Assembly: GCA_015492305.1 (NCBI GenBank) | Contig: WGFJ01000140.1 | Coordinates: 287 to 64,286 of the forward strand | Length of the DNA stretch: 64,000 nt | Direction: 5' to 3' | DNA from: Deltaproteobacteria bacterium | GTDB taxonomy: Bacteria; Desulfobacterota; GWC2-55-46; S146-80 | Shown here: positions 22,966 through 40,654 of the stretch, piece after piece | Layout of the letters: each line of letters opens with the position of its first letter | Numbering within the stretch: the stretch's first letter is position 1 | Made by a program: the position numbers and the translations under genes | Notes under the pieces: generated by a model | Told to the model about the DNA's origin: nothing | The model's input: the letters and a program-made list of their open reading frames with translations, nothing else | Databases searched by the model: none

Positions 22966-23414
22966 CTCCTGACCTCCCTGAGGACAACCTCTGCTGCCTT
23001 CGGAATGGAGGCCTCCACCTCAGGGGTAAGGCCTATCCCCTGACATACCCTGCCAGGTTCTATCCCCACGATCCTCCCCTCAGGCCTCCTCCCTTTCATC
23101 AGGGTAAAGAGGGAGAAGACCTCCCTCAGGTCCACCTCGTGGAGGGAAAGCTTCTGGGCCGTCCTTGATGGGACCTCACTTATGTCGAAGGTGTAGATGG
23201 AGCCAGGCCTTCCACCGCCCCTGAAGGCATCCACCACCACAATACCATCCGCACCTTCAAGGTAAGGGAAGAGCTTGAGGCCACCTGTTCCTCCATCGAT
23301 GGCCTCAACACCTTCTGGCAGGCCCCCCTTTTCCAGGAGGTACTCCACCACCCTGACACCCACAGCCTCATCACCCATGAGGAGATTGCCCACCCCTATC
23401 ACCCTTACCCTCAT
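22947..23414 (-). CDS. hyaD: hydrogenase maturation endopeptidase (HyaD/HybD family)
   Basis: Start moved to the internal ATG (MRVRVIGVGNLLMGDEAVGVRVVE…), which matches the protease N-terminus consensus and abuts the cytochrome b stop (overlap at 23414). The His-rich ORF extension upstream is judged non-coding. Confidence 0.8.
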   Translation of the reverse strand: MRVRVIGVGNLLMGDEAVGVRVVEYLLEKGGLPEGVEAIDGGTGGLKLFPYLEGADGIVVVDAFRGGGRPGSIYTFDISEVPSRTAQKLSLHEVDLREVFSLFTLMKGRRPEGRIVGIEPGRVCQGIGLTPEVEASIPKAAEVVLREVRRCMNLQ

Positions 23415-24061
23415 TACTGCGATCCCCTGACCTTCTTCAGCTTGTACCCTGTGAAGATGGATGTGAAGGTCCTGTCCCTGTCGGTAAGGTCCTTGAGTAT
23501 CCCCATGTATATGTGGACAGGGATGGTGATGATAAAGATCCACATCACCGCAAAGTGGATGAGTCTTGTTACAGGCATACCTCCCAGAAGCCTGTTCACC
23601 CATCCGAAGGCGGCCTGAGAATCAAAGAGGCCAAAAACACTGCCGCTGTAGAGGGCAAAGCCTGTGAAGATCTGGACGATTATGAGGAGTCCCCACACAA
23701 AGTAGGTGAGGGCCTGAAGGGGGTTGAACCTCTCGTAGTCCTTGTGGGTATCCTTGAGGAAGAGATAATAACCCAGGATATCGGGTATATCCCTTATGAG
23801 GCTCCACCTTGGCAGCAGGGCACCGATATCGTTGAAGTATATGTAGGCTATGAGGCTCAGGATGAGGATGTACATGGAGAGGAAGTGGAGGAACCTCATC
23901 CAGCTCATCAGGTAACCACCCTCACTCCCTGGGATGAAGGGTGCATAGATGTAGTACCCGGTGAAGATGAGGACGAAGATGGCGATGGCCCTCACCCAGT
24001 GGTTTATCCTGTATGCAAGGTTCCACTCATAGACAAGCTCGTATCTCTCCTTAGCCATCAC
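23414..24061 (-). CDS. hyaC: Ni/Fe-hydrogenase b-type cytochrome subunit
   Basis: Four-TM cytochrome b (…NHWVRAIAIFVLIFTGYYIY…) placed after the large subunit. Confidence 0.85.
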   Translation of the reverse strand: MMAKERYELVYEWNLAYRINHWVRAIAIFVLIFTGYYIYAPFIPGSEGGYLMSWMRFLHFLSMYILILSLIAYIYFNDIGALLPRWSLIRDIPDILGYYLFLKDTHKDYERFNPLQALTYFVWGLLIIVQIFTGFALYSGSVFGLFDSQAAFGWVNRLLGGMPVTRLIHFAVMWIFIITIPVHIYMGILKDLTDRDRTFTSIFTGYKLKKVRGSQ

Positions 24062-24068
24062 CCACCTC

Positions 24069-25661: not shown

Positions 25662-26725
25662 TACTCCTCACCCCCTTCCTTCTTGCCCTTTGTCCTGCCC
25701 TTCAGGGCTGAAGCCACAAAGTGGATACCTATGCCAGCAGCCGTTGCAACACCAAGGGTGGCACCTATCTTGTCTGCCGTATTCTCCACACCCTTGAAGA
25801 TGGGGATGGCAACACCTGGCAGTGCAGCCCTGAAGGGGCTGAAGGCATCAGGCCATCCAGGCTCGGTACAGCCTGTGCACCCGTAGCCTGTCTGAACACA
25901 CCAGCTTATCTTGTCGTTCCACCTCACAAGGGGACAGTTTGAAAAGGTATTCGGTCCCTTGCAGCCCATCTTGTAAAGGCATTTCCTCTCCCAGGCCTCC
26001 TCTGAACCGAACTCCTCCACAAAGACACCCTGATCGAAGTGGGCCCTCCTCGGACAGTTGTCGTGTATCCTTGTACCGTAGATCATCTTTGGCCTTCCAT
26101 ACCTGTCCAGTTCAGGAAGCCTTCCGAAGAGGAGGTTGTGGACGATGGTGGCAATCACCCATTCAGGGTTGACAGGACATCCCGGAAGATTCACCACCTG
26201 CCTCCCGAGGTACTCCCCGACCCCCTTGATACCGGCAGGGTTCGGCCTTGCCCCTGGCACCCCTCCATAGGTGGCACATGCACCGATGGCTATTATGGCC
26301 TTCGCCTTTTCAGAGGCCTCCTTCAGGATATCCATCATATCCCTTCTCCCTATCATCCCGTATCCACGCTTCGTGGGGACCCCTCCCTCTACGATGAGGA
26401 AGTAACCCCCTTCTTCTATGGATCTCTTCAGGATCTCTTCTGACTGGGTGCCTGCTGCAGCCATGATGGTCTCATGGTAGTCGATGCTCAGGATGTCAAG
26501 GACGAGTTCGGCAGCAGATGGATAGGTGGCTTTGATCACCGATTCGGTGCATCCTGTATCGGATGCGAAGTGGAGCCACACAACGGAAGGTCTTCTGGAG
26601 GCCTTCTCTATGGCCGATGCAATCTTCGGGATGTAGAGGTCGGAAAGGCCGAGCATGGAGGCAAGGAGCCCGCAGAACCTGAGGAACTCCCTTCGGTCAA
26701 GCTCTTTCAAAAGATAGTGCTTCAT
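25661..26725 (-). CDS. hyaA: [NiFe] hydrogenase small subunit, group 1, Tat-exported
   Basis: Twin-arginine signal (RREFLRF), Fe-S cluster cysteines, and a C-terminal hydrophobic anchor. Start set at MKHYLL, which has an AAAGGAGGGGG ribosome-binding site. Confidence 0.9.
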   Translation of the reverse strand: MKHYLLKELDRREFLRFCGLLASMLGLSDLYIPKIASAIEKASRRPSVVWLHFASDTGCTESVIKATYPSAAELVLDILSIDYHETIMAAAGTQSEEILKRSIEEGGYFLIVEGGVPTKRGYGMIGRRDMMDILKEASEKAKAIIAIGACATYGGVPGARPNPAGIKGVGEYLGRQVVNLPGCPVNPEWVIATIVHNLLFGRLPELDRYGRPKMIYGTRIHDNCPRRAHFDQGVFVEEFGSEEAWERKCLYKMGCKGPNTFSNCPLVRWNDKISWCVQTGYGCTGCTEPGWPDAFSPFRAALPGVAIPIFKGVENTADKIGATLGVATAAGIGIHFVASALKGRTKGKKEGGEE

Positions 26726-26807
26726 ACACCCCCCTCCTTTCAGCAAACGGTCCTAATACACCTGCCTCAACAGTCTATCACCTCCTTCCTCAAAGGACTT
26801 TTTTAAA

Positions 26808-26813
26808 ATTATA
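26808..26813 (-). promoter_or_regulatory. putative -10 element (TATAAT on minus strand) upstream of hyaA
   Basis: Perfect TATAAT in the 89-bp AT-rich gap between the two hydrogenase operons. The -35 is weak (ATGCAA). Confidence 0.3.
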
Positions 26814-26835
26814 GCAGATCATTACAACCTTTGCA

Positions 26836-28116
26836 TTAATCCCTTCTTATTTCAACCTTCAGGAGATGGGTGGAACAGGATATGCAGGGATCGTAGTTCC
26901 TTATGGTCTGTTCACTCCTGAAGGTGAGTTCCTCCTCTGCCATGTGGAGGTTCATCTCCACAAACTTCCTCAGGTCCTCCTCCATGACCCCCTGGTTCTG
27001 GGAGGTGGGTGGAACTATCTTTGCATCCCTTATTATGCCCCTACCGTCTATGGTGTACCTGTGGTAGAGTATCCCCCTTGGAGCCTCGGTGCATCCGTAT
27101 CCAGTGCCTTCCCTGACCTCAAATTCAATCGATGCCTCCCCTGGCTCTTCATACCCCTCAACGATACCCACTGCCTCATCGAAGGCATGGAGTATCTCAA
27201 TGGTCCTCACCACTATGGAAAGGAAGGGATTCCTGCAGGGAGGGACAAGACCCACCTCCCTTGCAATCTCCCTTGCAATGGGCCTCAACCTCTCGAAGTT
27301 CAGGTTGAACCTTGCAAGGGGTCCAACAAGGTAATGGCCCCTTTCCTTCAATCTGGAGTGGAGGGCCGTTGAATGGGGGACCTGCTCCTCCACGAAGTGG
27401 TCGTCATAATCCCTCACATCTATGTCAAGGCCCTTGTTCGAGACAATCCTCCCCTCATTCATGGGGTATTCATCGGGATGGGAGAGGGCCACAAACTCGT
27501 AGTCCCTCTCAAGATCAGGGAAGGGCAGGGTCGAAGCCCATCTCACCATCTCCACCGCCAGATCCCTTCCCCTTTTGAGGTCCTCAAGTATCCCCCTGAG
27601 CTCCTCCTTCCCCGGCACCCTGTAGAATCCCCCCACCCTGAGGTTCACAGGGTGGATCTCCCTCCCACCCACAAGGGCCACAAGGGCATTGCCTATGCGC
27701 TTTAGATTCAGCCCTTTCTCCACCACATCCCTGTGGTCCCCTGCCATCTCCATGGCGCTCTGGTAACCAAGGAAGTCAGGGGCATGGAGGAGGAAGACAT
27801 GGAGGGCATGGCTCTCGATCCACTCCCCGCAGTAGATAAGCCTCCTCAGGGTCCTGAGACCGCCGCCCACCTTCACACCCAGAAGGTCCTCCATGGCATG
27901 GGATGAGCTCATCTGGTAGGCCACAGGGCATATGCCACATATCCTTGCCGTTATGTCAGGGGCCTCGTCGAAACGTCTGCCCCTCAGGAAGGCCTCAAAG
28001 AACCTTGGCGGTTCAAAGATGTTCAACCTCACCTCCTGCACCTTCCCGCCCTTCACCCTCACATAGATCCCTCCCTCACCTTCCACACGGGCAAGGTTAC
28101 CCACCTTTATCCTCAT
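26836..28116 (-). CDS. [NiFe] hydrogenase large subunit, group 3b (sulfhydrogenase alpha-like)
   Basis: RICGICP…H motif and C-terminal DPCISCSTH. Size of 426 aa matches the short cytoplasmic group-3 type. Confidence 0.85.
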
Positions 28117-28892
28117 GCCCCCTCCCCTTCAAAGGACCTTGCAAAGGGTGCAAGGGCCCCTTCTATGTTGAAGGTCCTGAGTCTCCTTACAAGTTCCTCC
28201 CTCTCCATGCCGTATCTTTCGATCCACCATCTGCCAAGGGATTCCATGTTCACCGTCTCCGAAGGGCCGTAACATCCGTAGCACCCCCTCCTGTAGGAAG
28301 GACAGATGGCACCGCAACCGCCATGGGTCACGGGTCCCATGCAGGGCACCCCCTCTGATACCATGACGCAGACATTGTCCTTCATCTTGCACTCAAGGCA
28401 CAGGCTGTGGGAGGGGATGCTGGGGGTGCGACCGTTAAGGAGGGAGATCAGGACATATAGGAGCTGGTGCTTGTTTATGGGGCAACCCCTCAACTCAAGG
28501 TCAACCTTCACATGATGGGATACAGGGGTTGAATCCTTAAGGGTATCGATGTACTCGGGCCTTGCATACACAAGGGATGTAAACTCCTCAACATCCCTCA
28601 GGTTCCTCAGGGCCTGTATCCCCCCTGCCGTTGCACAGGCCCCTATGGCTATGAGGTACCTTGAGGCCCTCCTTATCCTTTTTATCCTTTCCACATCATG
28701 GGGTGTTGTGATGGAACCCTCTACAAGGGAGATGTGGTATGGCCCCTTCTCAACCCTTCGTGAGGCCTCAAGGAAGTAGGCCACCTCCACCGCCTCTGAA
28801 AGGGGCAGGAGTTCCTCCTCGCAGTCAAGGAGGCTGAGCTGGCACCCGTCACAGGAGGCAAACTTCCACACAGCAAGCCTTATCTTCCTCAT
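28113..28892 (-). CDS. [NiFe] hydrogenase small subunit, group 3b (delta-like)
   Basis: N-terminal CDGCQ, proximal and distal Fe-S cysteines, 259 aa. Overlaps its neighbours by 4 bp. Confidence 0.8.
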
Positions 28893-29713
28893 ACCTCCTT
28901 CCTCCAGATGAGTTCCTTCACCGTGTCATACCTGAAGACAGGACCATCCTTACACACAAAGTAGGGTCCAAACTGACAGTGGCCGCAAAGCCCTATGGCG
29001 CACTTCATATTCCTCTCCATGGAGAGGAATATCTTCTCCTCCTTCAGTCCTGCCTCCATAAGGGCCCTCACGGTAAAGCGCATCATCACCTCGGGTCCAC
29101 ATACCATGGCTGTTGTGTGGTATGGATCGAAGCGGGCCCTCTCAATAAGGGCCGTTACCACACCAACATTGCCCTTCCATGTGGAGGATGCGGAATCCAC
29201 GGTCACATCCACATACATGTCGAACCTCCCCCTCCACCTGTGGAGTTCCCTCTTGTAGAGGAGGTCATCCGGTGTCCTTGCACCGTAGAGGAGGAGGAAT
29301 CTGCCAAAGTCCTTCCTCCTTGAGAGGACATCGTAGACCACAGGCCTTAAAGGGGCAAGCCCAACCCCCCCTGCCACAAGGAGGATATCGTCACCCCTGG
29401 CCTCATCCACAGGCCATGGGTTACCAAAGGGCCCCCTCACGCCTATGGGGTCCCCCTTTTTCAGTCTCCCTATAAGGCCCGTGACAGAACCCACCATCCT
29501 CACCGTATGGACCACCCTGTCCATCTTTCCAGGGTCTCCGCTTATGGAGATGGGCACCTCCCCTGCACCAGGGAGGTAGAGCATGTTGAACTGACCCGGC
29601 CTGAACCGGAAGGGCCTCCCGTAGCCTTCCAGGGTAAGGGTCACAACATCCCCTGTCTCCCTCCTTATCTGTCCTACAGAGAGGATGGCTGGAATGAGGG
29701 GGTGGCCCATCAC
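28889..29713 (-). CDS. sulfhydrogenase gamma-like FAD/NAD(P)-binding subunit with [2Fe-2S] site
   Basis: PyrK-like oxidoreductase fold with C-terminal [10 protein letters not shown]. Confidence 0.75.
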
Positions 29714-30180
29714 CTTCCCTTTGGAGATCCGTAGACATCAAGGAGCTGCAGCCTTGTTGCCTGGAGCCTCTTATACATGATGTAGCTGAAGCGTTTCAGG
29801 AACTCATAGCCGAGTTCGTGGTCCTCCTCGCACTTCTTCCTGAGACAGTTGCCGTCAAGGGCAAGGGCCCTTGTGAGCTCCAGTGCCCTTGCATCAAAGA
29901 TCCAGTGGTATGGAGGTATGAGCCAGGAAAAGCCAAGGATGTCACCGTCATGGAGGGTCTGGATGGTTATGGGTGGCCTTCCCGGCACCCCTATCTCGAT
30001 GGCCACCCTCCCATACCTGATGAGGTAGAAGTAGTCTGCCTCCTCCCCTTCACGGAATATGTACTCCCCTTCGTTGAACCTCACATTCCTTGCACAGGAA
30101 ACGATCCTCTTCAGGATATCCTCCCTAAGCCCCTTGGAGAAGGGATGTTCCCTTAAAAGGCGCTCAAGATCCTCCATCAT
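29710..30180 (-). CDS. cyclic nucleotide-binding domain protein
   Basis: cNMP-binding beta-barrel motif (FREGEEADYFYLIRYGRVAIEI). ATG start at 30180 overlaps the upstream stop as ATGA, and the stop overlaps the gamma-subunit start. Confidence 0.6.
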   Translation of the reverse strand: MMEDLERLLREHPFSKGLREDILKRIVSCARNVRFNEGEYIFREGEEADYFYLIRYGRVAIEIGVPGRPPITIQTLHDGDILGFSWLIPPYHWIFDARALELTRALALDGNCLRKKCEEDHELGYEFLKRFSYIMYKRLQATRLQLLDVYGSPKGR

Positions 30181-31271
30181 CCACCTCCCTTTCTCAATTC
30201 CTCCACCACCTCGGTAATGTCTATCCCCACAGGACACCATGTTATGCACCTGCCACACCCCACACACCCAGGGGTGCCGAACTGATCTATCCAGGTGGCA
30301 AGCTTATGGGTGATCCAGTGGCGGTACCTTGAAGCTATGGAAGAGCGGATACTCCCTCCATGGAGGTATGTGAAGTCAAGGGTGAAGCAGGAATCCCATC
30401 TCTGCCACCTCTCTGCCGATCCATCGAGGGCCATCCTGTCCTCAAGGGTGGTACAGAAGCAGGTGGGGCACACAAAGGTGCAGTTCCCGCAGGCAAGGCA
30501 CCTCTTTTCCACATCCCTCCAGTATGGATGATCATGGCTCCTGTAGAGGAGTTCCTTGAGTCCATCCCTCTCAAGGGCCCTTCCCATCCTCCCCTTTGCC
30601 CCTTCGATAAGCCCCTCAGCCTCCCTTATCTGCGCTGGAGAGGCCTCCATCGATGGTATCCTCTCCAGAAGGCCCTTTCCCCTCTGTGAGCCTGCCTGTA
30701 TGAGGAAGTAGTGCTCCTTGCCAGAGACCTCTGTGAGGATGAGGTCGGCACCATCTCCTACCTCTGGGCCTGTCCCCATGGACAGACAGAAACATGTACC
30801 CCCTGGATGGGTGCAGTTCACCGCTATTATGAGGCTTTTCTCCCTCCTCCTGAGGTAGTGGGGGTCCCTGTACTCACCTTCTAAAAGGACCCTGTCCCGG
30901 ATGGAGATCCCTGCTACATCGCAGGGTCTTACAAGGAAGGCAAACCCCGGATCATCCCCATCCTCCTCTTCAACCCCTCTTCCATCGGATGAGACCCTGA
31001 AGAGGAGCCTTTCAGGGGGATTGAGAAAGTATTTCGGTGAACCCGGACCAACCGCGTAACCGAAAAAGAGATCCCCTTCCTGTCTCAGACGATACCTACC
31101 TGCCCCCTGCTCATCCCTGTATCCCTCGGGCAGGTCCCCTATGGACCCTATCTCCCCGTAGTGTATTGCACCATCCCTTACAAGGGGACCCACGACCGTG
31201 TAACCCTCTTCCCTGAGGGCCCTTAAGAGCCCTTCAAGGCCTTCCTTTCCTATCACCCTTACGGTCATCAT
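30177..31271 (-). CDS. sulfhydrogenase beta-like 4Fe-4S subunit
   Basis: Ferredoxin-type cysteine clusters (CLACGNCTFVCPTCFC; GCVGCGRCITWCP). 364 aa. Confidence 0.75.
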   Translation of the reverse strand: MMTVRVIGKEGLEGLLRALREEGYTVVGPLVRDGAIHYGEIGSIGDLPEGYRDEQGAGRYRLRQEGDLFFGYAVGPGSPKYFLNPPERLLFRVSSDGRGVEEEDGDDPGFAFLVRPCDVAGISIRDRVLLEGEYRDPHYLRRREKSLIIAVNCTHPGGTCFCLSMGTGPEVGDGADLILTEVSGKEHYFLIQAGSQRGKGLLERIPSMEASPAQIREAEGLIEGAKGRMGRALERDGLKELLYRSHDHPYWRDVEKRCLACGNCTFVCPTCFCTTLEDRMALDGSAERWQRWDSCFTLDFTYLHGGSIRSSIASRYRHWITHKLATWIDQFGTPGCVGCGRCITWCPVGIDITEVVEELRKGGG

Positions 31272-31290
31272 GTCTTTAAGAGCAGGGCCT

Positions 31291-31677
31291 TCAAGGGGTC
31301 CTTCCCTTTGAGGAGACCCTGATTATGGTCTTCAGGTTCCCCCTGGGGTTGAAATCCCCTATGACCTCTATGAATCTCGGCTTCAGGACCTTCTGAAGGT
31401 CGTCGTATATCCTGTTTGTAGCCGCCTCATGGGAGATGTACCGGTCCCTGAAGGAGTTGAGGTAGAGCTTCAGGGACTTGAGCTCGACTATGTACCTGTC
31501 GGGGATGTAGTTGATCCTTATGGTGGCATAGTCTGGATAGCCAGACCTCGGACAGAGGCAGCTGAACTCTGGAAAGGAGAGCTCTATGAGATAGTCCCTG
31601 TCAGGACAGGGGTTCTCCCATACCTCAAGCCTCACCTCCTTTATGGCCTTCTCTCCATACCTGAGTCCGTCTGCCAT
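31291..31677 (-). CDS. queF: NADPH-dependent 7-cyano-7-deazaguanine reductase (preQ1 synthase)
   Basis: QueF motifs [19 protein letters not shown] and [13 protein letters not shown]. Start set at the internal MADGLRY, giving a type-I size of 129 aa. Confidence 0.8.
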
Positions 31678-31746
31678 ACCCAAATTATAGTGTAAAAGAC
31701 ACCCTAAAGGAAGTCCTTTCCAATAGTCCTTGAAAGGGGGGATGAT

Positions 31747-32289
31747 TTGAGGTATAACCCTCTCTCTAAAGCCATGATCACTAACAAAGGGAACATGCTC
31801 TTTCCAACCATCTTCATGGCCCTTGCGGCTGCTGTACTCCTGTACGCTGGTTACAGGAAAGGGGTCCATGTGAAGGGGCTTATGTGGGGGCTCACAATGA
31901 CCCTCAAGATCCTTCCCCTCGTCTTCCTCGCACTCCTTGTGGCAGGGATGGTTCAGCTCCTCATACCCAGGGAGTCCATCTCGGCATGGATCGGATCAGG
32001 GGCAGGGCTGAGGGGTATCATACTTGGTTCCATAGCCGGAAGCCTCTCCCCTGGAGGCCCCTATGTGAGCCTTCCCATAGCCCTTGCACTCCTCCACTCA
32101 GGTGCAAGTATAGGGACGGTGGTGTCCTTCCTTACAGCCTGGTCCCTTATGGCTGTCTCAAGGCTTCCCATGGAGATCGGTTTCCTCGGGTGGAAGGTCA
32201 CGGTGATACGGGTGATGAGCACATTCTTCTTCCCACCTGTTGCAGGCCTTATCGCCCAGACCCTCTTCGGTAGCAGGACAGGAGGATAG
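31747..32289 (+). CDS. small polytopic membrane protein, putative permease
   Basis: Four to five predicted TM segments. First gene of a plus-strand block and adjacent to the nrdD-like start. Confidence 0.35.
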
Positions 32290-32291
32290 AG

Positions 32292-34247
32292 ATGACCGAC
32301 CCCTCCGATCTCCCAAGGGAGAGGATAACGGACCTCACCCTCTTTGTAAGGACATCATCGGAGGAGATGAGTCCCTGGAACAGGGAGAGGATAGTGGATG
32401 CCCTCATGAGGGAAACCCCACTTGACTACGAGTCAGCCGTTGCCATAAGCAGGGAGATAGAAGACTTCATCTTCCGGTCCGGATTGAGGCACATAACCAC
32501 ACCCCTCATAAGGGAACTCGTGGACACCAAGCTGATCGAAAGGGGCTTTGAGGGTATCTACAGGAGGCACAGGAGGCTTGGAGTACCCGTCTACGATGTG
32601 GAGAACCTCCTCTTCCATTCAGGGAAGGAGAATGCCAACATACCCCACTCACCAGAGGCATCCAGCCACATACTTTCAGAACTGATAAAGAAGGAGTATG
32701 CCCTTGAAGCGGTCTTCTCCCCTGAGGTGAGGGATGCCCACATCAGGGGAGACATACACATCCATGGCCTTGGTTTCATAGACAGGCCTTACTCCACCTA
32801 TCAAAACCTCGAGGGCCTCAAGGAAGGAGGCCTTGACCTTTCCTTTCCCCCTGTTAAGGCAGGACCTGCCAGACATGCAGATGCACTCCTGTCCCAGATG
32901 ATAAGGCTCTCAAGCCTCCTTCAGGCCCACTATGCAGCCTCCATAGGGTGGTACGGTGTCAACCTGTCCTTTGCCCCCTATCTCAGGGGGATGGACTACA
33001 GAGGAATAAGGCAGATCGCCCAGAGGATGGTCTTTGAATTCTCCCAGCTTGGGGCAGGCAGGGGTGGACAGGCCATATTCTCAACGATCCACATAGACCT
33101 CAAGCCTTCCCGGGGTGCTACAGCCATAGGACCGGGTGGCAGTCGATGCGGCACCTACGGGGATTACAGGAAAGAGGCAAGGCTCTTTGCCATGGCCCTT
33201 ATGGAGGTCTACAGGGAGGGGGATGCCTCTGGCAAGCCCCTCTTCTTCCCCCAGCCCTGGTTCCACATATGGGAAGAAACCCTGGAGGATAGAGAACTCC
33301 TGTCGTTGCTCCTGGCTGTGTGTCAGGAAAAGGGTGTGCCCCACATCCTCTTTGAAAGAGGGGATGGAAGGACCCTTCTGGAAGGTCCCTTCCCCTCCAT
33401 CTCCATCCTCCAGAATGTGAGCATCAACCTCCCGAGGATCGGATACCGGATCAGAGGAGGGCAGGATCCGGATAGGGAGCTTGAAAGGGTGGTGGAGATT
33501 GCCATAAGGGCCCATGTCGAGAAGAGGGAGTTCCTCAGAAGGCTTGCAGAAAAGGAGAAGGGACCACTGAGCTTTGTGGTGGAAAAGGGCTTCTTCTCCC
33601 CGGACAGGGCAGTGGCCTTTGTGGGTATAATAGGCCTTCCCGAGTACCTTCATATCATCGGAAAGGAGGGGGATGGAGGGGAGGCGGCAGGGGTCCTCAA
33701 AAGGCTTGAGAGGCTGGTAACCCGGATGGGCAAGAGGCACATGCTTCAGGCCTGCCTCACCCAGACCCCTGGGGAGAGCACGGCCCACCGCTTTGCAAAG
33801 CTCGACCTCAAGTACCATGCCCCTCTGAGTGGAAGGAACATAAGGGGTGACATCGCAAAGGGAGAGATCTATTACAACACATCCCTCCTGCCCATCTCTT
33901 CCGAGGTGGAGCCCTTTGAGAGGGCAAGGTACGAGGGGGCCTTGCAGCCCCACATAAGGGGGGAGACCTTTACCAACATCTATCTCGAAGGAAGGCCCTT
34001 CAGGGAGGACTTCATAGAGAGGCTCTTCAGGAAAACAGGGGTAAGGTCCATCTCCCTGTCTCCGGACTTTACCTTGTGCATGGACTGTGGTATCTCCATA
34101 GAGGGGATCCGGGAAAGGTGCGGGTCCTGCGGTTCCAGCAGGGTCGACTACATCTCAAGGGTTACAACCTACTACTCCCTTCTCTCCAACTGGAACAGGG
34201 GGAAGGTGGGAGAATGGAAGGAGAGGTTCAGATGGAAGGGCTGGTAA
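32292..34247 (+). CDS. anaerobic ribonucleoside-triphosphate reductase (NrdD)-like protein with atypical radical-site motif
   Basis: Length of 651 aa, an ATP-cone-like N-terminus, and a C-terminal Zn ribbon (CMDCG…CGSCG). This is followed by SRVTTYYS where NrdD carries the RVCGY glycyl-radical motif. Confidence 0.5.
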   Translation: MTDPSDLPRERITDLTLFVRTSSEEMSPWNRERIVDALMRETPLDYESAVAISREIEDFIFRSGLRHITTPLIRELVDTKLIERGFEGIYRRHRRLGVPVYDVENLLFHSGKENANIPHSPEASSHILSELIKKEYALEAVFSPEVRDAHIRGDIHIHGLGFIDRPYSTYQNLEGLKEGGLDLSFPPVKAGPARHADALLSQMIRLSSLLQAHYAASIGWYGVNLSFAPYLRGMDYRGIRQIAQRMVFEFSQLGAGRGGQAIFSTIHIDLKPSRGATAIGPGGSRCGTYGDYRKEARLFAMALMEVYREGDASGKPLFFPQPWFHIWEETLEDRELLSLLLAVCQEKGVPHILFERGDGRTLLEGPFPSISILQNVSINLPRIGYRIRGGQDPDRELERVVEIAIRAHVEKREFLRRLAEKEKGPLSFVVEKGFFSPDRAVAFVGIIGLPEYLHIIGKEGDGGEAAGVLKRLERLVTRMGKRHMLQACLTQTPGESTAHRFAKLDLKYHAPLSGRNIRGDIAKGEIYYNTSLLPISSEVEPFERARYEGALQPHIRGETFTNIYLEGRPFREDFIERLFRKTGVRSISLSPDFTLCMDCGISIEGIRERCGSCGSSRVDYISRVTTYYSLLSNWNRGKVGEWKERFRWKGW

Positions 34248-34822
34248 CAAAGGTTTATAAAGAGAGCATAGCCGTCAAGGAGGCCTTTTTCAAGGAGGAG
34301 ACCCACAGGATCATCGAGGTGGCAAGCCTCATAGCCGAGACCTTCACCAGAGGAAACAAACTACTCCTCATTGGAAATGGCGGAAGCGCTGCAGATGCCC
34401 AGCACATAGCCGCTGAGTTTGTAAACCGTTTCAGGATCGAGAGACCTCCACTGCCTGCCCTTGCCCTCACAACGGACACATCCATCATAACGAGTATAGG
34501 GAACGATTACGAGTTCAGACAGATCTTCGCAAAGCAGGTGAAGGCCCTTGGAAAGGAGGGAGACATCCTCATGGCCATAAGCACAAGCGGCTCCTCACCC
34601 AACATACTGGAAGCCATAAAGGCGGCAAGGAAGATGGATATAAAAGTGATCGGCCTTACAGGCAGGGATGGAGGTGAGATGGCCGGGATGGTGGATATAC
34701 CCCTTGTGGTGAGGAGTGATAACACACCAAGGATACAGGAAGTCCACATCACCGTTGGACACATCCTCTGTGAACTCGTGGATTACATCCTCTTCAAAAA
34801 GCCCCTTGAGGAGGTGGAATGA
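34232..34822 (+). CDS. gmhA: SIS-domain phosphoheptose isomerase
   Basis: GmhA-like motifs (LLIGNGGSAADAQHIAAEF…ISTSGSSPN). Start set at the ATG that has a GGAAGGAGAGG ribosome-binding site; 34214 is an alternative. Confidence 0.8.
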   Translation: MEGLVTKVYKESIAVKEAFFKEETHRIIEVASLIAETFTRGNKLLLIGNGGSAADAQHIAAEFVNRFRIERPPLPALALTTDTSIITSIGNDYEFRQIFAKQVKALGKEGDILMAISTSGSSPNILEAIKAARKMDIKVIGLTGRDGGEMAGMVDIPLVVRSDNTPRIQEVHITVGHILCELVDYILFKKPLEEVE

Positions 34823-35757
34823 AGAGGTGGGAACCCCTCTCCTTTGAAGGGGTGAAGAGGAGATCCATAGGGGAGAGGGCAAGCAAGGTAAGGGAAGGGG
34901 ACCTCGCCACACCCCTGAAGAAGGGAGCCTCCTTAAGGGAGTTCCTGGAAGGGCTCCCTGACATCCTCGGAGCAAGGGACCTCATAGCCCTTGCAAAGGA
35001 GATAGGGGAATCGAGGAAGAAGGGAAGGCCAGTCATCCTCGGGATGGGTGCCCATGTCATAAAGACCGGTCTTTCCCCGGTGATCATAGACCTCATGGAG
35101 GAAGACATCATCACAGGTGTTGCCATGAATGGTGCCGGGATCGTCCATGACTTCGAGCTTGCCCTTGCCGGAAAGACATCGGAGGATGTGGACAGGGAGA
35201 TAGACGAGGGGATGTTCGGCATGACCGAAGAAACGGGAAAGATCCTGAACAGCGCCATAAAGAGAGGGGTTGAGAGGGGCTACGGCATAGGGGAGGCCGT
35301 GGGCAGGGAGATACTGGAGTCCTGCCCGAACAGGGAGATCAGCATCCTTGCGGCAGGGGTGAGGCTGAACAAGCCTGTAACCGTCCATGTGGCCCTTGGC
35401 ACCGACATCATCCACATCCACCCTGAGGTGGACGGGAAGGCCATAGGGGAGGGAGGGATGAGGGACTTCCGCATATTCTGTGGCCTTGTTAAAGACCTCG
35501 AAGGAGGGGCCTACATCAATGCGGGATCTGCTGTGATACTGCCAGAGGTCTTCCTGAAGGCCCTTACCCTTGTGAGGAACCTCGGCTACAGGGTGGAAAG
35601 GTTTGTCACGGCAAACATGGACTTCATCCAGCACTATAGACCCCTTACCAATGTGGTAAGGAGGCCCACAAAGAAGGGAGGAAAGGGTTTTTCACTAACA
35701 GGCCACCATGAGATAATGCTCCCCCTCCTTGCAGCCGCCGTAAAGGAGTATATGTGA
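34819..35757 (+). CDS. deoxyhypusine synthase family protein (DHS-like NAD-binding)
   Basis: The segment LGMGAHVIKTGLSPVIIDLMEEDIITGVAMNGAGIVHDFELAL aligns by eye with the DHS core (LGLAGAMVPAG…VTTGANLTHD). Confidence 0.55.
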   Translation: MKRWEPLSFEGVKRRSIGERASKVREGDLATPLKKGASLREFLEGLPDILGARDLIALAKEIGESRKKGRPVILGMGAHVIKTGLSPVIIDLMEEDIITGVAMNGAGIVHDFELALAGKTSEDVDREIDEGMFGMTEETGKILNSAIKRGVERGYGIGEAVGREILESCPNREISILAAGVRLNKPVTVHVALGTDIIHIHPEVDGKAIGEGGMRDFRIFCGLVKDLEGGAYINAGSAVILPEVFLKALTLVRNLGYRVERFVTANMDFIQHYRPLTNVVRRPTKKGGKGFSLTGHHEIMLPLLAAAVKEYM

Positions 35758-35761
35758 GGCC

Positions 35762-36979
35762 CTACGCCTCTATTGTCCTTCCCTTCCTCGGGATCACTAC
35801 TATCTTCGATGGATCAACGGTGTAGCGGAGACGATCCTTCTTCGGATCAAAGCCTATCTCCTCACCCTCCTCTATTACATTGTGCTTGTCCACAATCACC
35901 CTCTTCAACCTGCACCCCTTCTTGAGAACAACACCCTCCATGATGATACACTCCTCAACAGAAGCACCTTCCTCAACAACCACACCGCTCCTGAGGATCG
36001 AATCCCTGATAAGGCCCCCATGGATCACCGTTCCCTCTGCAATGGAGGAGTTCACCACCTCTCCACCGAAGATCCTCACAGAGGGACCACCTTCAACGCC
36101 GGAATGGATGGGCCAGTCCTGATTGTCCAGTTCGAACCTTGGCTCTTTGCCGAGCATGTCCATGTGGGCGTTGAAGTAGGAGGATATGGTCCCCACATCC
36201 CTCCAGTAGGCCCTCTCCTCGTAGGGTCTTATGCCTGGAACCACGTTGGTCGCAAAGTCATAGGCATAGACCCTACCGGTCCTCACAAGGTCCGGTATCA
36301 CATGGGCACCGAAGTCGTGTTGATCCTTCTTCTGGGCCTTTATAAGGGCCTCTACAAGGACATCCCTGTTGAAGATGTAATTCCCCATGGAGACATAGGC
36401 CATGGATGGGTTGCCGGGCATGGGAGTGGGACTTTCAGGCTTTTCCTGAAACCCAACAATCCTGTTCTCCTCATCTGCCACGATCACACCAAAGGCAGAT
36501 GCCTCTTCAAGGGGCACAGGCCTTGCGGCCACGGTAACAGAAGCCCCCCTGGAGAGGTGGAAATCCACCATCTGCCTCACATCCATCCTGTATATGTGAT
36601 CTGCGCCAAAGATGATGACGATCTCAGGGTTGTGGTCGTTTATGAGGTTTATGTTCTGAAAGACCGCATCCGCTGTCCCCTGAAACCACTCAGGTCCCAC
36701 CCTCATCTGGGGAGGGACTATGGCTATAAAGTGATCCCTCACAAGGGGGGAAAAGACCCAGTTCTGCCTCACGTGCTCGATAAGGGACTGGGATTTGTAC
36801 TGGACAAGGAGGTATATGGAGTAGATGTGGGAGTTTATGAGGTTGCTGAGCACGAAATCCACGATCCTGAACCTCCCACCGAAGGGGACAGCAGGCTTCG
36901 AGCGGTAGGCTGTAAGGGGATAGAGCCTCTCCCCCTTTCCCCCGGCAAGGACAAAGGCAAGTATCTTTGGATGGGCCAA
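35762..36979 (-). CDS. glgC: glucose-1-phosphate adenylyltransferase
   Basis: N-terminal LAGGKGERLYPLT…KPAVPFGG, with a left-handed beta-helix C-terminus. TTG start. Confidence 0.9.
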   Translation of the reverse strand: MAHPKILAFVLAGGKGERLYPLTAYRSKPAVPFGGRFRIVDFVLSNLINSHIYSIYLLVQYKSQSLIEHVRQNWVFSPLVRDHFIAIVPPQMRVGPEWFQGTADAVFQNINLINDHNPEIVIIFGADHIYRMDVRQMVDFHLSRGASVTVAARPVPLEEASAFGVIVADEENRIVGFQEKPESPTPMPGNPSMAYVSMGNYIFNRDVLVEALIKAQKKDQHDFGAHVIPDLVRTGRVYAYDFATNVVPGIRPYEERAYWRDVGTISSYFNAHMDMLGKEPRFELDNQDWPIHSGVEGGPSVRIFGGEVVNSSIAEGTVIHGGLIRDSILRSGVVVEEGASVEECIIMEGVVLKKGCRLKRVIVDKHNVIEEGEEIGFDPKKDRLRYTVDPSKIVVIPRKGRTIEA

Positions 36980-37082
36980 GGACCACCTCCTTCTGGAATC
37001 TCGCCAAGATTATAGCATCCCTTCTGCAGAAGGACAAGTGAGGGCAGGATCCGTTGATGATGAAATCAAAGGCAAAAGGTGG

Positions 37083-37088
37083 TATAGT
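37083..37088 (+). promoter_or_regulatory. putative extended -10 (TGgTATAGT) immediately upstream of ku
   Basis: TATAGT preceded by TG and ending 6 nt before the ku ATG at 37095, which implies a leaderless transcript. The -35 is poor. Confidence 0.25.
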
Positions 37089-37094
37089 TATGGT

Positions 37095-37862
37095 ATGAAG
37101 GCGATCTGGAAGGGAAGCATAACCCTTGCCCTGGTGAGCATCCCTGTCAAGGTCTACGGGGCCACCCACCACAGGGGCATAAGCTTCAGGCTCCTCCACA
37201 GGCCCTGCTCTACCCCCTTGAGATACGAGAAGTTCTGTCCCACCTGCAACAGGGAGGTTGGAAGGGAAGAGATAGTCCATGGCTACGAATACGAGAAGGG
37301 GAGGTTTGTGACCATCACCGATGAAGAGCTTGAAAAGGTGGCCATCAAGACCTCCAAGGCCATAGAGATCCTGAAGTTTGTGGATCCCAGGGAGGTGGAA
37401 CCCACCTTCTACGACAGGGCCTTCTACCTTGAACCCCAGGAAGGGGGTGAGAGGGCCTACACCCTCCTCAGGGAGATCATGAGGATGACCGACAAGGTAG
37501 GTCTTGCAAAGATAGCCATGAGGGAGAGGGAGCACATAGGGGTGATAAGGATCTGGGGGAAGACGCTCGTCCTCCACACCCTTTACTACGCGGACGAGGT
37601 CATGAGGCCAGAGGCCCTGCACATCCCAGAGGGAATCCGTCTCGAAGAGGAGGAACTTTCCCTTGCAAGGGAACTGGTCAAGCACTTCACAGGCCCCTTT
37701 GACATCGAGAGATACCACGATGAGTTCAGGGAATCCCTCATGGAACTCATAAGGGCAAAGATAGAAGGTAAGGAGATAAAGGTCCCCCCGAAGAGGGAGG
37801 TCGAGAAGGTTGTAAGCCTCATGGAGGCCCTGAAGAAGAGCCTGGAAAAGAAGGCGGTATAG
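37095..37862 (+). CDS. ku: Ku protein (non-homologous end joining)
   Basis: Canonical N-terminus MKAIWKGSITLALVSIPVKVY. The upstream ORF-track GTG extension was rejected. Confidence 0.9.
   Translation: MKAIWKGSITLALVSIPVKVYGATHHRGISFRLLHRPCSTPLRYEKFCPTCNREVGREEIVHGYEYEKGRFVTITDEELEKVAIKTSKAIEILKFVDPREVEPTFYDRAFYLEPQEGGERAYTLLREIMRMTDKVGLAKIAMREREHIGVIRIWGKTLVLHTLYYADEVMRPEALHIPEGIRLEEEELSLARELVKHFTGPFDIERYHDEFRESLMELIRAKIEGKEIKVPPKREVEKVVSLMEALKKSLEKKAV
37818..37858. repeat. 41-bp direct repeat, copy 1 (encodes the Ku C-terminus)
   Basis: CTCATGGAGGCCCTGAAGAAGAGCCTGGAAAAGAAGGCGGT is identical to 38438-38478. Confidence 0.95.
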
Positions 37863-37875
37863 CCTGCTGCAAACC

Positions 37876-38199
37876 TTGAGTGCCGATATCCTGGAATTTA
37901 TCCGGTCTTGCGTAAGAGATCACAGGGTGTATTGGACCTATCATGTCAATATGCGGTTGAGGGAACGCTTCATACCCCGTAAAGCCATCCTGGCTTCGGT
38001 GGATTCATATGAGATAATCGAAGAGTATCCGGATGATAAATACTTACCGAGCTATCTGATCTATGCAGAGTACGAAGGGGAGGTCTTCCATATCCACATC
38101 GCTACCGACATGGATAACAACAACATAAGGATAGTGACGGCCTATAAGCCCACCATAGATAAGTGGGAGAAGGATTTCAAAACAAGGAGGAAGAAATGA
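37876..38199 (+). CDS. DUF4258-like protein (putative toxin-antitoxin component)
   Basis: A 107-aa protein that I recognise as DUF4258-like. Lower-GC codon usage than its surroundings. Confidence 0.5.
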   Translation: MSADILEFIRSCVRDHRVYWTYHVNMRLRERFIPRKAILASVDSYEIIEEYPDDKYLPSYLIYAEYEGEVFHIHIATDMDNNNIRIVTAYKPTIDKWEKDFKTRRKK

Positions 38200-38417
38200 A
38201 TTGCCGTATCTGTGGGGGAAAGCTGGAGAGTGTTATCACCGATATGCCCTTCAAGGTCAGGAACAACTCCATCGTTATCATAAAAAAACTGCCCCTTCTA
38301 CAGTGCAAAAACTGCAATGAATACCTCATCGAGGATGCCGTGATGGAAAAGGTGGATGAGATCCTGGCCAGAGTCGACCAGACAGCAGAGCTTGAGGTCC
38401 TAAGCTATGCTGTATAA
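38196..38417 (+). CDS. YgiT-type zinc-finger protein (MqsA-like N-terminal domain), putative antitoxin
   Basis: Start set at MNCRICGG. Carries CxxC…CxxC (CRICGG…CKNCNE), as in YgiT/MqsA zinc-finger domains. Confidence 0.55.
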   Translation: MNCRICGGKLESVITDMPFKVRNNSIVIIKKLPLLQCKNCNEYLIEDAVMEKVDEILARVDQTAELEVLSYAV

Positions 38418-38437: not shown

Positions 38438-38478
38438 CTCATGGAGGCCCTGAAGAAGAGCCTGGAAAAGAAGGCGGT
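38438..38478. repeat. 41-bp direct repeat, copy 2 (encodes the LigD C-terminus on the minus strand)
   Basis: Identical to 37818-37858. The minus-strand translation …PPSFPGSSSGPP* forms the ligase C-terminus. Confidence 0.95.
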
Positions 38479-39410
38479 GTGAGGCACTCTTCAGGTCCCT
38501 TATCATCCCTTATGCCCTTGAAGGAAGGGGCCCTGAGTTTCCCATCCACAGTCCACTCCTGAAAGGAGACCCTTACCACCATCTCGGGCCTGCACCAGAA
38601 GACCCTCCTCTTCAACCTCGGTTCCACCTCAAAGGGGCAACTCCCTGTTGCAAGCCTCTTCAGCCTCTTGTTGATCACCTCCATATCCCTTGCATCGAAG
38701 CCTGTTCCCACCTGTCCGATGTGGACAAGCCTCCCTTTATGAAAGAGGCCAAGGACAAGGGAGCCAAAAAGACCCCTTCTCTCCCCCTCACCCTCAAGGT
38801 AACCGCACACAACGGCATCCACATCCATCACCCCCTTCACCTTGAGCCAGTAGCTCGACCTTACTCCGGGCAGATAGGGGCTATCCTTCCTCTTTGCCAT
38901 TATCCCCTCGAACCCAAGGGAAAGTGCCTCTCTGTAAAGGGCCTTTCCCCTTGGATAGACCTCCGAGAGGATCACATTCTCACCAAGGGGAAAAAGCCCT
39001 TCAAGTATCCTTCTCCTCTCCACAAGGGGCATCTTCATCAGGTCCTTTCCATCTATGGAGAGGAGATCGAAGACCACATATGTAGCAGGCAGGATACGGG
39101 AAAGGATCTCCACCCTGAAGGGATCCTCCACATGCTCCCTTTCCTGGAGCTTCCTGAAGTCTGGCCTCCCACCTTCAAGGACCACTATCTCACCATCAAG
39201 GATGGCTGAAGATGCCCTCAAGGATGCGGGAAGATCCCGGAACTCTGGATACCTCCTGGTTATGTCCAGGAGCCTCCTGTTCTGCAGCCTGACCCTCCCC
39301 TCCTCAACAAAGGCAATGCACCTTGTGCCGTCCCACTTCAGTTCATAGAGGTAGTCCTCTGAATCTATGGGAGGGGAAGACAGGGCAAGCATGGGGCGGA
39401 TCTGCTTCAT
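38439..39410 (-). CDS. ligD: ATP-dependent DNA ligase (LigD ligase-domain-only type)
   Basis: Adenylation motif I (ELKWDGTRC) and the downstream ligase motifs. 323 aa with no polymerase or phosphoesterase domains. Confidence 0.85.
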   Translation of the reverse strand: MKQIRPMLALSSPPIDSEDYLYELKWDGTRCIAFVEEGRVRLQNRRLLDITRRYPEFRDLPASLRASSAILDGEIVVLEGGRPDFRKLQEREHVEDPFRVEILSRILPATYVVFDLLSIDGKDLMKMPLVERRRILEGLFPLGENVILSEVYPRGKALYREALSLGFEGIMAKRKDSPYLPGVRSSYWLKVKGVMDVDAVVCGYLEGEGERRGLFGSLVLGLFHKGRLVHIGQVGTGFDARDMEVINKRLKRLATGSCPFEVEPRLKRRVFWCRPEMVVRVSFQEWTVDGKLRAPSFKGIRDDKGPEECLTPPSFPGSSSGPP

Positions 39411-39550
39411 ACCCCTTTAATACACCAATCCCTCCTCTTTGTATAGCCTTTCATGCGGGATCTACAAAAGGGTTTGAATCGGTCCCGCTAAGTGCTAAAA
39501 TAAAAGATCCTTTAGAGGGGTTAAGACAGGATTCTCTACAAGGAGTGGGT

Positions 39551-40654
39551 ATGAAGGTTTGCAACAAGGTGAAAGAGGCCTTCCAGGAGAAGGCCCTCTG
39601 GGATGACTGGAGATGGCAGTTCAGGAACAGGATAAGGGACCTTGAAGGCCTGAAGCGTTTCGTAAACCTCACACCTGAAGAGGAGGCAGGTATAAGGTGG
39701 GCCGAAGAGAGGTTCCCCATGGCCATAACCCCCTACCTCCTCTCCCTTATAGATCCCCTTGATCCCGAGTGCCCCGTAAGGAAGCAGGTGATCCCGAGGA
39801 TAGATGAGGCCTTTGTAGCCAGAGGGGACCTCTCTGACCCCTGCGGGGAGGAAAGCCATTCCCCTGTCCCTGGCCTTGTCCACAGGTATCCTGACAGGGT
39901 CCTTCTCCTTGTAACCGACACCTGCGCCTCCTACTGCAGGTACTGCACAAGGAGAAGGAGGGTAGGAGAAGAGGAAAGGGACAGCAGCATTGAGGAAGCC
40001 ATAGAGTACATCAGAAAGAACAGGTCCGTCAGGGACGTCCTCCTTTCCGGTGGAGACCCCCTGATACTGAGCACCGAAAGGCTTGAGGCCATCCTCAAGA
40101 GGATAAGGGAGATACCCCATGTGGAGATAATAAGGATAGGCACAAGGGTGCCTGTAAACCTCCCCCAGAGGATAGATCAGGACCTTACAGGGATGCTCAG
40201 AAGGTATCATCCCATCTTCATGAGCATCCACTTCAGCCATCCAAAGGAGATCACACCGGAGTGTGGAAGGGCCCTCTCGGCCCTTGCAGATGCAGGGATA
40301 CCCCTCGGGAGCCAGACGGTCCTCCTCAGGGGCATAAACGATGATCCCGAGACCATGAAGACCCTGATGCATGGACTCCTCAAGCACAGGGTACGCCCCT
40401 ACTACCTCTACCAGGCAGACCTCGTCCCAGGGACATCCCACTTCAGGACCCCTGTGAGAAAGGGGATAGAGATCATAGAGAGGCTGAGGGGATTCACAAC
40501 GGGCTATGCCGTTCCCACCTTTGTGATAGATGCCCCTGGAGGCGGGGGCAAGGTCCCTGTTGGGCCTGAATATGTGATAAAGATGGACAAGGGGAAGGTC
40601 CTCTTCAGGAACTACGAGGGCAAGACCTTTGAGTATATAGAGCCAGAGGAATGA
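39551..40654 (+). CDS. KamA-family radical SAM protein (lysine 2,3-aminomutase-like)
   Basis: CxxxCxxC in the KamA context (TDTCASYCRYCTRR) and KamA family blocks. Start set at the MKVCNKV ATG, giving 367 aa. Confidence 0.8.
   Translation: MKVCNKVKEAFQEKALWDDWRWQFRNRIRDLEGLKRFVNLTPEEEAGIRWAEERFPMAITPYLLSLIDPLDPECPVRKQVIPRIDEAFVARGDLSDPCGEESHSPVPGLVHRYPDRVLLLVTDTCASYCRYCTRRRRVGEEERDSSIEEAIEYIRKNRSVRDVLLSGGDPLILSTERLEAILKRIREIPHVEIIRIGTRVPVNLPQRIDQDLTGMLRRYHPIFMSIHFSHPKEITPECGRALSALADAGIPLGSQTVLLRGINDDPETMKTLMHGLLKHRVRPYYLYQADLVPGTSHFRTPVRKGIEIIERLRGFTTGYAVPTFVIDAPGGGGKVPVGPEYVIKMDKGKVLFRNYEGKTFEYIEPEE

Follow-up and report, generated by a model that had tools for sequence, protein, structure and literature searches.

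In glycyl radical enzymes (GREs), the catalytic Cys generally lies in a loop that faces the radical residue. Among class III ribonucleotide reductases (RNRs; NrdD), the T4 enzyme holds its thiyl-radical Cys290 in the motif MGCR, and the T. maritima (Tm) enzyme has the triphosphate motif Y112-x-H114-D115 (PMC4493059). In P. copri NrdD the triphosphate is held by an HxHD motif together with the loop and helix after the third-last strand, an ENAN sequence known as the “NxN flap” closes over bound substrate, and the Tyr that follows the radical Gly forms a hydrogen bond with a loop Glu that bridges substrate and flap (PMC11226230). Aminoacyl radical enzymes (AAREs) have Ala, Ser, or Thr in place of the GRE Gly and still carry a stable radical, and the equivalent survey of class III RNRs (IPR012833) found Gly alone at the radical position (Fu et al., 2024; PMC11528403). 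Here we describe an NrdD-like protein of 651 amino acids (aa) that has lost this Gly together with its Cys sites and adjacent activase gene, encoded in a 64,000-nucleotide stretch (the window) of contig WGFJ01000140.1 from a Deltaproteobacteria bacterium (assembly GCA_015492305.1, positions 287 to 64,286). Homologs of NrdD without the Gly are not described in the literature we searched, which excludes most subscription-journal papers, and do not appear in RNR reviews and phylogenies (PMC4390871, PMC9531940, PMC9669993, PMC3019208) or in a 2026 GRE review (PMC13450708). Since the 2024 survey found only Gly in class III RNRs, such sequences seem to have been overlooked.

The gene and the protein features discussed below are located in the window as follows.

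32292-34247, + strand: NrdD-like protein, 651 aa; Pfam NRDD (PF13597), 289.9 bits, residues 113-647
32343-32564, + strand: degenerate ATP-cone-like N-terminal domain, residues 18-91; PF03477
32622-32657, + strand: NxN flap motif GKENANIPHSPE, residues 111-122, retained; aligned with the P. copri ENAN flap
32757-32768, + strand: triphosphate motif HxHD altered to H156-I-H158-G159; alignment of P0048 with T. maritima NrdD
32781-32795, + strand: DRPYS, with Ser168 in place of the beta-strand Cys; canonical relatives have DRPYC, aligned to Tm ..PYC125
33354-33398, + strand: Cys-free residual loop, residues 355-369; MAFFT/hmmalign gap against SECCRL plus about 19 residues
34077-34130, + strand: Zn ribbon CxxC...CxxC (C596, C599, C610, C613), retained; invariant in alignment A1 of relatives
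34158-34175, + strand: R-V-T-T-Y-Y, with Thr626 at the glycyl-radical position and Tyr627 retained; HMMER alignments

The 651-aa protein is predicted to have the class III RNR fold, including the ten-stranded barrel. Its Pfam NRDD match spans the sequence end to end, and an AlphaFold2 model built on 45 relatives reached a mean pLDDT of 82.4 and a pTM of 0.81. In a Foldseek search of the PDB with this model, the top 36 matches were all class III RNRs (8p2s_B at E = 9e-27), with TM-scores of 0.64–0.73 to T. maritima chains (entries compared: 4coi, 4coj, 4col, and 4u3e). An earlier note on this DNA, which placed this and three neighboring open reading frames (ORFs) at coordinates that hold, had named an ATP-cone-like N-terminus and a C-terminal Zn ribbon as NrdD hallmarks; both are present, the cone as a marginal match (PF03477, 26.5 bits vs. 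a cut-off of 25.8, E = 9.4e-6) whose pattern LFVRTS...W.R..I..AL is invariant across relatives, both canonical and degenerate. The protein scores below the cut-off of all eight matching NCBIfam NrdD equivalog models (e.g., TIGR02487, 240.6 vs. 326.35).

Pairwise HMMER alignments pair RVTTY of the query with RITGY in P. copri NrdD and RIVGY in T. maritima NrdD, and reveal no Gly at a shifted position. This confirms the Gly-to-Thr replacement proposed earlier and shows that it does not come from a shift in register. Its codon, ACC (34167-34169), is two substitutions from any Gly codon, and Thr is common to three further lineages at this position (together with the window, the Thr-type lineages). 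In an alignment of 120 homologs (MAFFT, hmmalign), DRPYC(S), SECCRL, and RITGYF are the conserved motifs of the 100 canonical proteins; their counterparts in the query are DRPYST, a gap about 19 residues long, and RVTTYY. Mapped to the solved enzymes through P0048, a canonical relative that was aligned with T. maritima NrdD, SECCRL corresponds to Tm 328-SCCR-331 and T4 288-MGCR-291, and DRPYC to Tm Cys125 and T4 Cys79. What remains of the finger loop is modeled as a coil between strands 351-354 and 370-379. The earlier note had left the fate of the finger-loop Cys to alignment, and the answer is deletion of the entire SECCRL motif. Since the losses also include the thiyl-radical Cys motif and the Cys of the beta strand, the case for a pseudoenzyme is stronger than the one made there, and the description “pseudo-enzymatic RNR scaffold” fits.

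No activase gene is nearby either, as the same note had said. Searching the 64 kb by tblastn with NrdG2 activase, thioredoxin-like, canonical NrdD, and HD queries returned only the NrdD-like gene itself; the sole CxxxCxxC radical-SAM gene in the window encodes a KamA-like aminomutase (39323-40654), and there is no activase at the other Thr-type loci (L171, L003, and L174) either. Pfam searches of the ten largest other ORFs in the window found no RNR of another class. It is very probable that the 651-aa protein is unable to act as an RNR.

A Thr at the radical position invites the question of whether the protein could be a threonyl-radical enzyme, the class III counterpart of the AAREs. In PFL-type homologs, three residues have been shown to carry a C-alpha radical, and Thr is one of them (PMC11528403). 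Thr626 with its flanks (RVTTYYS) is strictly conserved down to 57% identity. The AAREs, however, had partner activating enzymes in the experiments (PMC11528403), and none is found in the 64 kb or at the three other loci. Across the four Thr-type lineages the only conserved Cys are the four of the Zn ribbon, the SCCR motif being deleted, and sister groups carry Gln, Arg, Lys, Asn, or Asp instead, which points to a general loss of radical function. With no Cys available, no activase nearby, and other residues in the sisters, we consider a threonyl-radical RNR very unlikely, to the point of giving it hardly any credence.

Much of the nucleotide-recognition apparatus is retained. Within the flap motif KENAN.PH.PE (residues 112-122), E113, A115, N116, P118, H119, and P121 are invariant. 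Also invariant in canonical and degenerate relatives are H156 and H158, N375 and N379 (QNVxxNLPR), E495 (TPxEST), Y627 after the former Gly, and N635, G637, and K638 of WNxGK, in which W634 is nearly so. Save for the Asp-to-Gly change in HxHD, the network linking bound nucleotide to an ordered flap and C-terminal domain thus appears largely intact, and from this we infer that the NrdD-like protein binds nucleotide. Judged from these sequence features, it may act as a non-catalytic nucleotide-binding sensor, regulator, or scaffold, in which the flap and C-terminal domain would order or disorder upon binding. We hold this reading tentatively, at somewhere between rather doubtful and slightly better than even depending on how narrowly the role is defined, though it is the most likely of the roles considered.

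The catalytic residues and activase are all gone and the branches of the degenerate forms are long, as might be expected if the gene were a recently inactivated nrdD, a functionless relic in the course of being lost. Conservation argues against this. Relatives of Thr type share 81% (L171), 68% (L003), and 57% (L174) identity with the window protein, and all four lineages have an intact ORF with DRPYST, no loop Cys, and RVTTYYS, and share 318 invariant alignment columns. The ratio of nonsynonymous to synonymous substitution rates (dN/dS, Nei-Gojobori) is 0.127 between the window and L171 and 0.188 between the window and L003, i.e., 0.13–0.19, as in neighboring housekeeping genes (0.08–0.17 over the SIS, GSU2086-family, permease, and glgC genes; 0.10 for gmhA and 0.09–0.14 for the permease). 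The cone region has values of 0.08–0.14, the lowest in two of three pairwise comparisons and second lowest in the remaining one. A promoter-like block is also conserved upstream, and more than 100 related degenerate clusters are full length. The gene is under purifying selection, not decaying, and a dying relic is a most improbable explanation. The Thr-type branch itself is rare, comprising four lineages, all metagenomic; scans of GTDB representative genomes and JGI metagenomes found no Thr-type relative, the best match being 47–48% identical. In a neighbor-joining tree, the Thr-type clade (100% bootstrap) falls among long-branch degenerate forms, beside a clade linked to HD-domain genes that is described next.

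Loss of the radical Gly extends well beyond the Thr-type branch. In the first homolog set it is absent from 20 of the 120 proteins (15 Gln, 3 Thr, 1 Arg, and 1 Asn), and an exhaustive search over 50%-identity representatives added Arg, Asp, Ile, Glu, and Asn forms. When ten of the representatives were tested against NCBIfam, nine fell below the NrdD cut-offs; the tenth, the Gly-retaining P0152, passes TIGR02487 at 354. A search around the Arg-type P0148 yielded 108 clusters, in which the Gly position is occupied by Gln (80), Arg (18), Gly (5), Lys (2), and His, Leu, or Cys (one each); Ser replaces the strand Cys in 89 of the 108, and HxHG is the rule. Wherever the sources give these proteins a name, it is “anaerobic ribonucleoside-triphosphate reductase” or a close variant. 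Shared DRPYS, HxHG, and QL for QQ before RGGQ suggest that the Thr-, Gln-, and Arg-types have a common ancestry.

We sorted about 170 loci by type, drawing on GTDB representative genomes, JGI metagenomes, and individual look-ups. Where all three sites are intact (127 loci), nrdG lies downstream in 71 of 107, a gene for a SAMHD1-type HD protein lies upstream in 1 of 103, and a SIS/gmhA gene lies downstream in 4 of 107; a small MJ0307-type thioredoxin gene often stands between nrdD and nrdG. Where the Gly is replaced by Gln, Lys, Asn, or Thr (25 loci), the corresponding counts are 0 of 23, 15 of 23, and 21 of 23. In Syntrophales, a 472-aa HD gene lies directly 5′ of the degenerate NrdD-like gene, often overlapping its start, and a SIS gene followed by grpE-dnaK lies downstream. 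Such HD genes are found in L004 (6230-7648), L006 (6577-7992), L007 (6357-7775), and about 25 other loci, and their products match EF1143-type and SAMHD1 deoxynucleoside triphosphate (dNTP) triphosphohydrolases (E = 1e-26 to 1e-14). The two genes look like a fixed pair, a dNTPase homolog with a dead RNR homolog.

Within the HD-linked clade, L049, L106, L111, L113, L114, L120, and L124 keep the radical Gly and strand Cys. All three sites are intact in L049 (RCCRLDF), and the other six read SECG, with Gly at the position aligned to T4 Cys290; erosion within this clade therefore looks stepwise. These Gly-retaining forms could be working enzymes served by an activase encoded elsewhere, or they could be stages in an ongoing loss.

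Two further observations concern other NrdD homologs. A separate group of 740–770 aa with about 35 representatives (P0183, P0194, P0206, P0207, P0214, P0229, and about 30 more) has neither a loop Cys nor a C-terminal Zn/glycyl domain, and mostly has “DRLH” for DRPYC. The three members tested (P0207, P0214, and P0229) have a clear N-terminal ATP-cone, matching RNR cones at E = 1e-14 to 1e-30, and the group may represent another, independent type of NrdD derivative without the radical. At L087 (VGSH01000116.1) the Gly motif reads RVTSHG in a locus that is otherwise canonical (DRPYCS, SECCRL, nrdG downstream); a frameshift or an error of assembly close to the 3′ end is the probable cause, rather than real variation.

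Regulation by NrdR separates the canonical from the degenerate genes. We searched for NrdR-box-like sites as ACACWATATATWGTGT with up to 3 mismatches, scanning canonical genes from −500 to +250. Such sites occur at 55 of 127 canonical genes, or 0.77 per kb vs. a background of 0.0086 per kb, and 14 canonical loci have at least two, with a spacing of 31 bp in the examples listed. In Thermodesulfobacteriota, canonical nrdD genes have the palindromes just upstream (L008, L016, L019, L028, and 50 others). The degenerate loci (n = 44), scanned to −2600, yielded 2 matches in 113 kb, which is background. One of the two is the intergenic site at 31678-31693 in the window (3 mismatches), which we attribute to chance; it is absent from L003, L171, and L174. 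The canonical operon order of nrdD, small MJ0307-type thioredoxin gene, and nrdG2 fits a thioredoxin-dependent class III RNR, and a thioredoxin-type (SCCR-motif) enzyme of this kind would be the ancestor from which the 651-aa protein descended.

A protein without its own radical site might still work as the non-catalytic partner in a heterodimer, pairing through the conserved dimer helices with a canonical NrdD encoded elsewhere and tuning its allostery or activity. The protein shares conserved barrel and N-terminal regions with canonical relatives, its gene is under purifying selection, and in the P. copri NrdD dimer only one monomer is active at a time (PMC11226230), so that a half-dead dimer is conceivable. 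Against such a partnership, the 64-kb window has no canonical nrdD or nrdG, the degenerate branches are long, and the loss of NrdR boxes means that the degenerate genes are not co-regulated with RNR genes. We regard it as improbable.

The NrdD-like gene lies in a compact operon, whose other members and upstream element are listed here.

31730-31758, + strand: promoter-like block of TTGAAA, 17 nt, and TATAAC preceded by GG; upstream alignment of the four Thr-type loci
31747-32289, + strand: ArsP_1-type half permease, 180 aa; Pfam PF03773, 49.3 bits, profile positions 11-137 of 294
34232-34822, + strand (called start 34232): GmhA (sedoheptulose-7-phosphate isomerase), 196 aa; TIGR00441 and Pfam SIS_2
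34819-35757, + strand: GSU2086-family protein, 312 aa; NF052581

The permease stop codon is 2 nt before the NrdD-like start, and the NrdD-like gene overlaps gmhA by 16 nt, which in turn overlaps the GSU2086-family gene by 4 nt. The operon is flanked on the opposite strand by queF (preQ1 synthase) and glgC; the longest queF ORF is 192 aa, and the gene is called at 128 aa in the source assembly. The window is a section of a 102.8-kb metagenome scaffold (ENA ERZ23495063, REYS20-1). Upstream of the operon, the block CCTTGaAA-N17-GGTATAAC is conserved in all four Thr-type loci, with CCTTG.AA and GGTAT invariant among their upstream regions, and it resembles a sigma-70 promoter, which would make it the likely promoter of the operon. 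A consensus promoter and terminator scan found sites no more often than in shuffled sequence and missed this block, since its −10 hexamer ends in C. The called permease start, TTG at 31747, sits between the −35-like and −10-like elements, so that the true start is probably the ATG at 31774 or the ATG at 31795, the latter with AAGGGA ahead of it. An Rfam scan of 30000-38000 gave no match at E ≤ 0.1. The permease gene precedes the NrdD-like gene in L001, L003, and L171 and is absent from L174. Of the four-gene cluster set out in the earlier note, it is thus the NrdD-like, gmhA, and GSU2086-family genes that are conserved in four lineages, while the permease is not a constant member.

The product of the SIS gene passes the TIGR00441 (gmhA) model at 214.8 (cut-off 209.45) and matches Pfam SIS_2 at 116 bits. 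DiaA was considered and rejected, as only the gmhA model passes (DiaA model, 168 vs. 352). The 312-aa protein had been called a member of the deoxyhypusine synthase (DHS) family, unusual in bacteria. At the level of fold the likeness stands: its AlphaFold2 model (pLDDT 88.4) has P. horikoshii DHS as its best Foldseek match (E = 8e-10, TM 0.61, 16% identity). The family assignment does not, as the protein is below the DHS cut-offs (Pfam DS PF01916, 21.1 vs. 27; TIGR00321, 19.8 vs. 304) and matches NF052581 over its full length (420.9 bits vs. a cut-off of 250). Nor is it unusual, since the GSU2086 family is very common, with at least 8000 candidate homologs, every scored one at E ≤ 1e-20. The best 120 of these are 61–77% identical, and those that carry names belong to Nitrospirota or Thermodesulfobacteriota (“Deltaproteobacteria”).

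The Geobacter sulfurreducens gene GSU2086 is flanked by hldE and gmhA, in an operon that the authors assign to “sugar biosynthesis” (PMC5585712). We read this as a heptose/lipopolysaccharide operon and heptose synthesis as the usual setting of GSU2086, in which the family could supply a missing step. In the loci examined, the GSU2086-family gene is directly 3′ of SIS/gmhA (window 34819-35757; L061 13898-14905; L174 6889-7857; L175 8001-9014), and argH is often next (L174, L175). The gmhA-GSU2086 pair also occurs downstream of an intact nrdD-nrdG in L061 and L082 and without any nrdD upstream in L175; it is probably present in L063 too, where nrdG and SIS alone were matched and the contig ends soon after. 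A GSU2086-family gene is likewise found 3′ of nrdD-trx-nrdG in L024, L028, and L034. Most simply, nrdD...gmhA-GSU2086 would be an old neighborhood in which, here, nrdG was lost and nrdD degenerated in place. Co-transcription of the NrdD-like gene with gmhA and the GSU2086-family gene would then reflect synteny that was probably inherited, with no shared pathway implied.

The earlier note had instead suggested a sugar- or polyamine-modifying pathway, and a version of this idea has the NrdD-like protein as a new non-radical enzyme or subunit whose partners are GmhA and the GSU2086-family protein and whose substrate is a heptose or nucleotide-sugar. The ORF overlaps found in all four Thr-type lineages suggest translational coupling of the three genes, a SIS gene is downstream at 21 of the 23 Gly-replaced loci counted above, and the protein still has the polar active-site residues N375, N379, and E495. 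The pathway finds no support in the wider distribution of the gmhA-GSU2086 pair, which is widespread, follows intact nrdD-nrdG (L061, L082), occurs without nrdD (L175), and accompanies hldE in Geobacter. In addition, Arg-type degenerate relatives have no SIS neighbor (P0148 and P0293 stand alone beside ribD), and in Syntrophales the GSU2086-family gene is not adjacent to the degenerate NrdD-like gene. We think a sugar-modifying role quite improbable.

Taken together, a nucleotide-binding sensor, regulator, or scaffold is the reading we prefer. As a descendant of a thioredoxin-type RNR, the protein has lost regulation through NrdR boxes and the adjacent activase gene, has Thr626 where the radical Gly was and Ser168 for the strand Cys, and lacks the finger-loop Cys pair through deletion, while purifying selection has kept it as a folded protein with the NrdD barrel, Zn ribbon, cone-like N-terminus, and most of the substrate-recognition network. 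Several points weigh against this proposal. There is no constant partner gene: the HD gene is missing from the Thr-type loci, the permease from L174, and the Arg-types stand alone. NrdD-family and gmhA genes are neighbors in three settings (canonical, HD-linked, and Thr-type), and the persistence of this arrangement in all of them makes a functional tie between the NrdD family and the SIS gene possible. Deeper groupings in the neighbor-joining tree have only 9–42% bootstrap support, which is compatible with one loss or with several.

A bolder form of the proposal is that degenerate NrdD paralogs are (d)NTP-sensing pseudoenzymes that control partner proteins, such as the SAMHD1-type dNTP phosphohydrolase encoded upstream in Syntrophales. 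We put this forward as a speculative and rather unlikely extension. If it were true, there would be a hitherto unrecognized class of (d)NTP sensors, the Thr-type branch among them, in which the RNR pockets, mobile flap, and C-terminal domain were kept as a nucleotide-responsive switch, and anaerobes would gain a second, RNR-derived layer of control over their nucleotide pools.

Other gene sets in the window are of separate interest. Genes for Ku (37038-37862), an ATP-dependent, LigD-like DNA ligase (38439-39410), and a PolX-PHP polymerase (47725-49473) lie within about 12 kb and probably make up a bacterial non-homologous end-joining set. Between ku and the ligase gene (37876-38417), overlapping ORFs for a DUF4258 protein (107 aa) and an 84-aa CxxC...CxxC protein resemble a toxin-antitoxin pair. 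Directly upstream of queF are two [NiFe]-hydrogenase gene sets (about 22900-31271): the first includes cytochrome b and the maturation genes hypA, hypC, and hycI, and the second is sulfhydrogenase-like, with four genes and an inserted gene for a cNMP-binding protein. The second set adjoins the NrdD-like operon in L003 too.

The family offers a clear example of an RNR that has become a pseudoenzyme: it is still under selection and keeps the NrdD fold without the Gly, the Cys sites, the activase, or NrdR control. Recognizing it corrects a systematic misannotation of degenerate NrdDs as working reductases; because these members are named as reductases, metabolic reconstructions may credit anaerobes with an RNR that they do not possess. 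It is also a natural experiment that separates the parts of NrdD used for nucleotide recognition from those used for radical chemistry. The value of the Thr-type branch is as an entry point into a large, mislabeled family that is absent from the literature searched.

Among described systems, the closest are the thioredoxin-type enzymes of T. maritima and N. bacilliformis (NrdD2/NrdDh-like), with which the query shares the fold, Zn ribbon, NxN flap, both His of the triphosphate motif, the Tyr124-equivalent (Y167), the phosphate-helix Glu, and the Tyr after the radical position. Its nearest canonical relatives (44–47% identity) are also of this type, with SECCRL and operons of nrdD, a thioredoxin-like gene, and nrdG2. 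In contrast to them, the query has no radical Gly, SCCR Cys pair, strand Cys, or HxHD Asp, no adjacent activase or thioredoxin-like gene, and no NrdR boxes, and scores under all NCBIfam equivalog cut-offs. The likeness to AAREs consists of a Thr at the radical position within an otherwise conserved glycyl-radical-type motif; those enzymes are PFL-type (IPR004184) and were activated by partner enzymes experimentally, whereas the query has no conserved Cys outside the ribbon and no nearby activase. The 312-aa neighbor compares with deoxyhypusine synthase in a similar way, having a DHS-like Rossmann fold (TM about 0.6) but only 12–17% identity and a usual place beside gmhA. A further comparison is with the HD-linked clade of Syntrophales and other Thermodesulfobacteriota (45–49% identity to the query; Gln, Arg, or Lys at the Gly position), which shares DRPYS, HxHG, and QL(x)xxRGGQ, has likewise lost nrdG and NrdR boxes, and has SIS/gmhA downstream. 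That clade usually has a SAMHD1-type HD gene upstream and grpE-dnaK after, and many members have a longer, sometimes Cys-bearing loop, whereas the query clade is set apart by its Thr, its shorter loop, the absence of an HD gene, and a GSU2086-family gene downstream.

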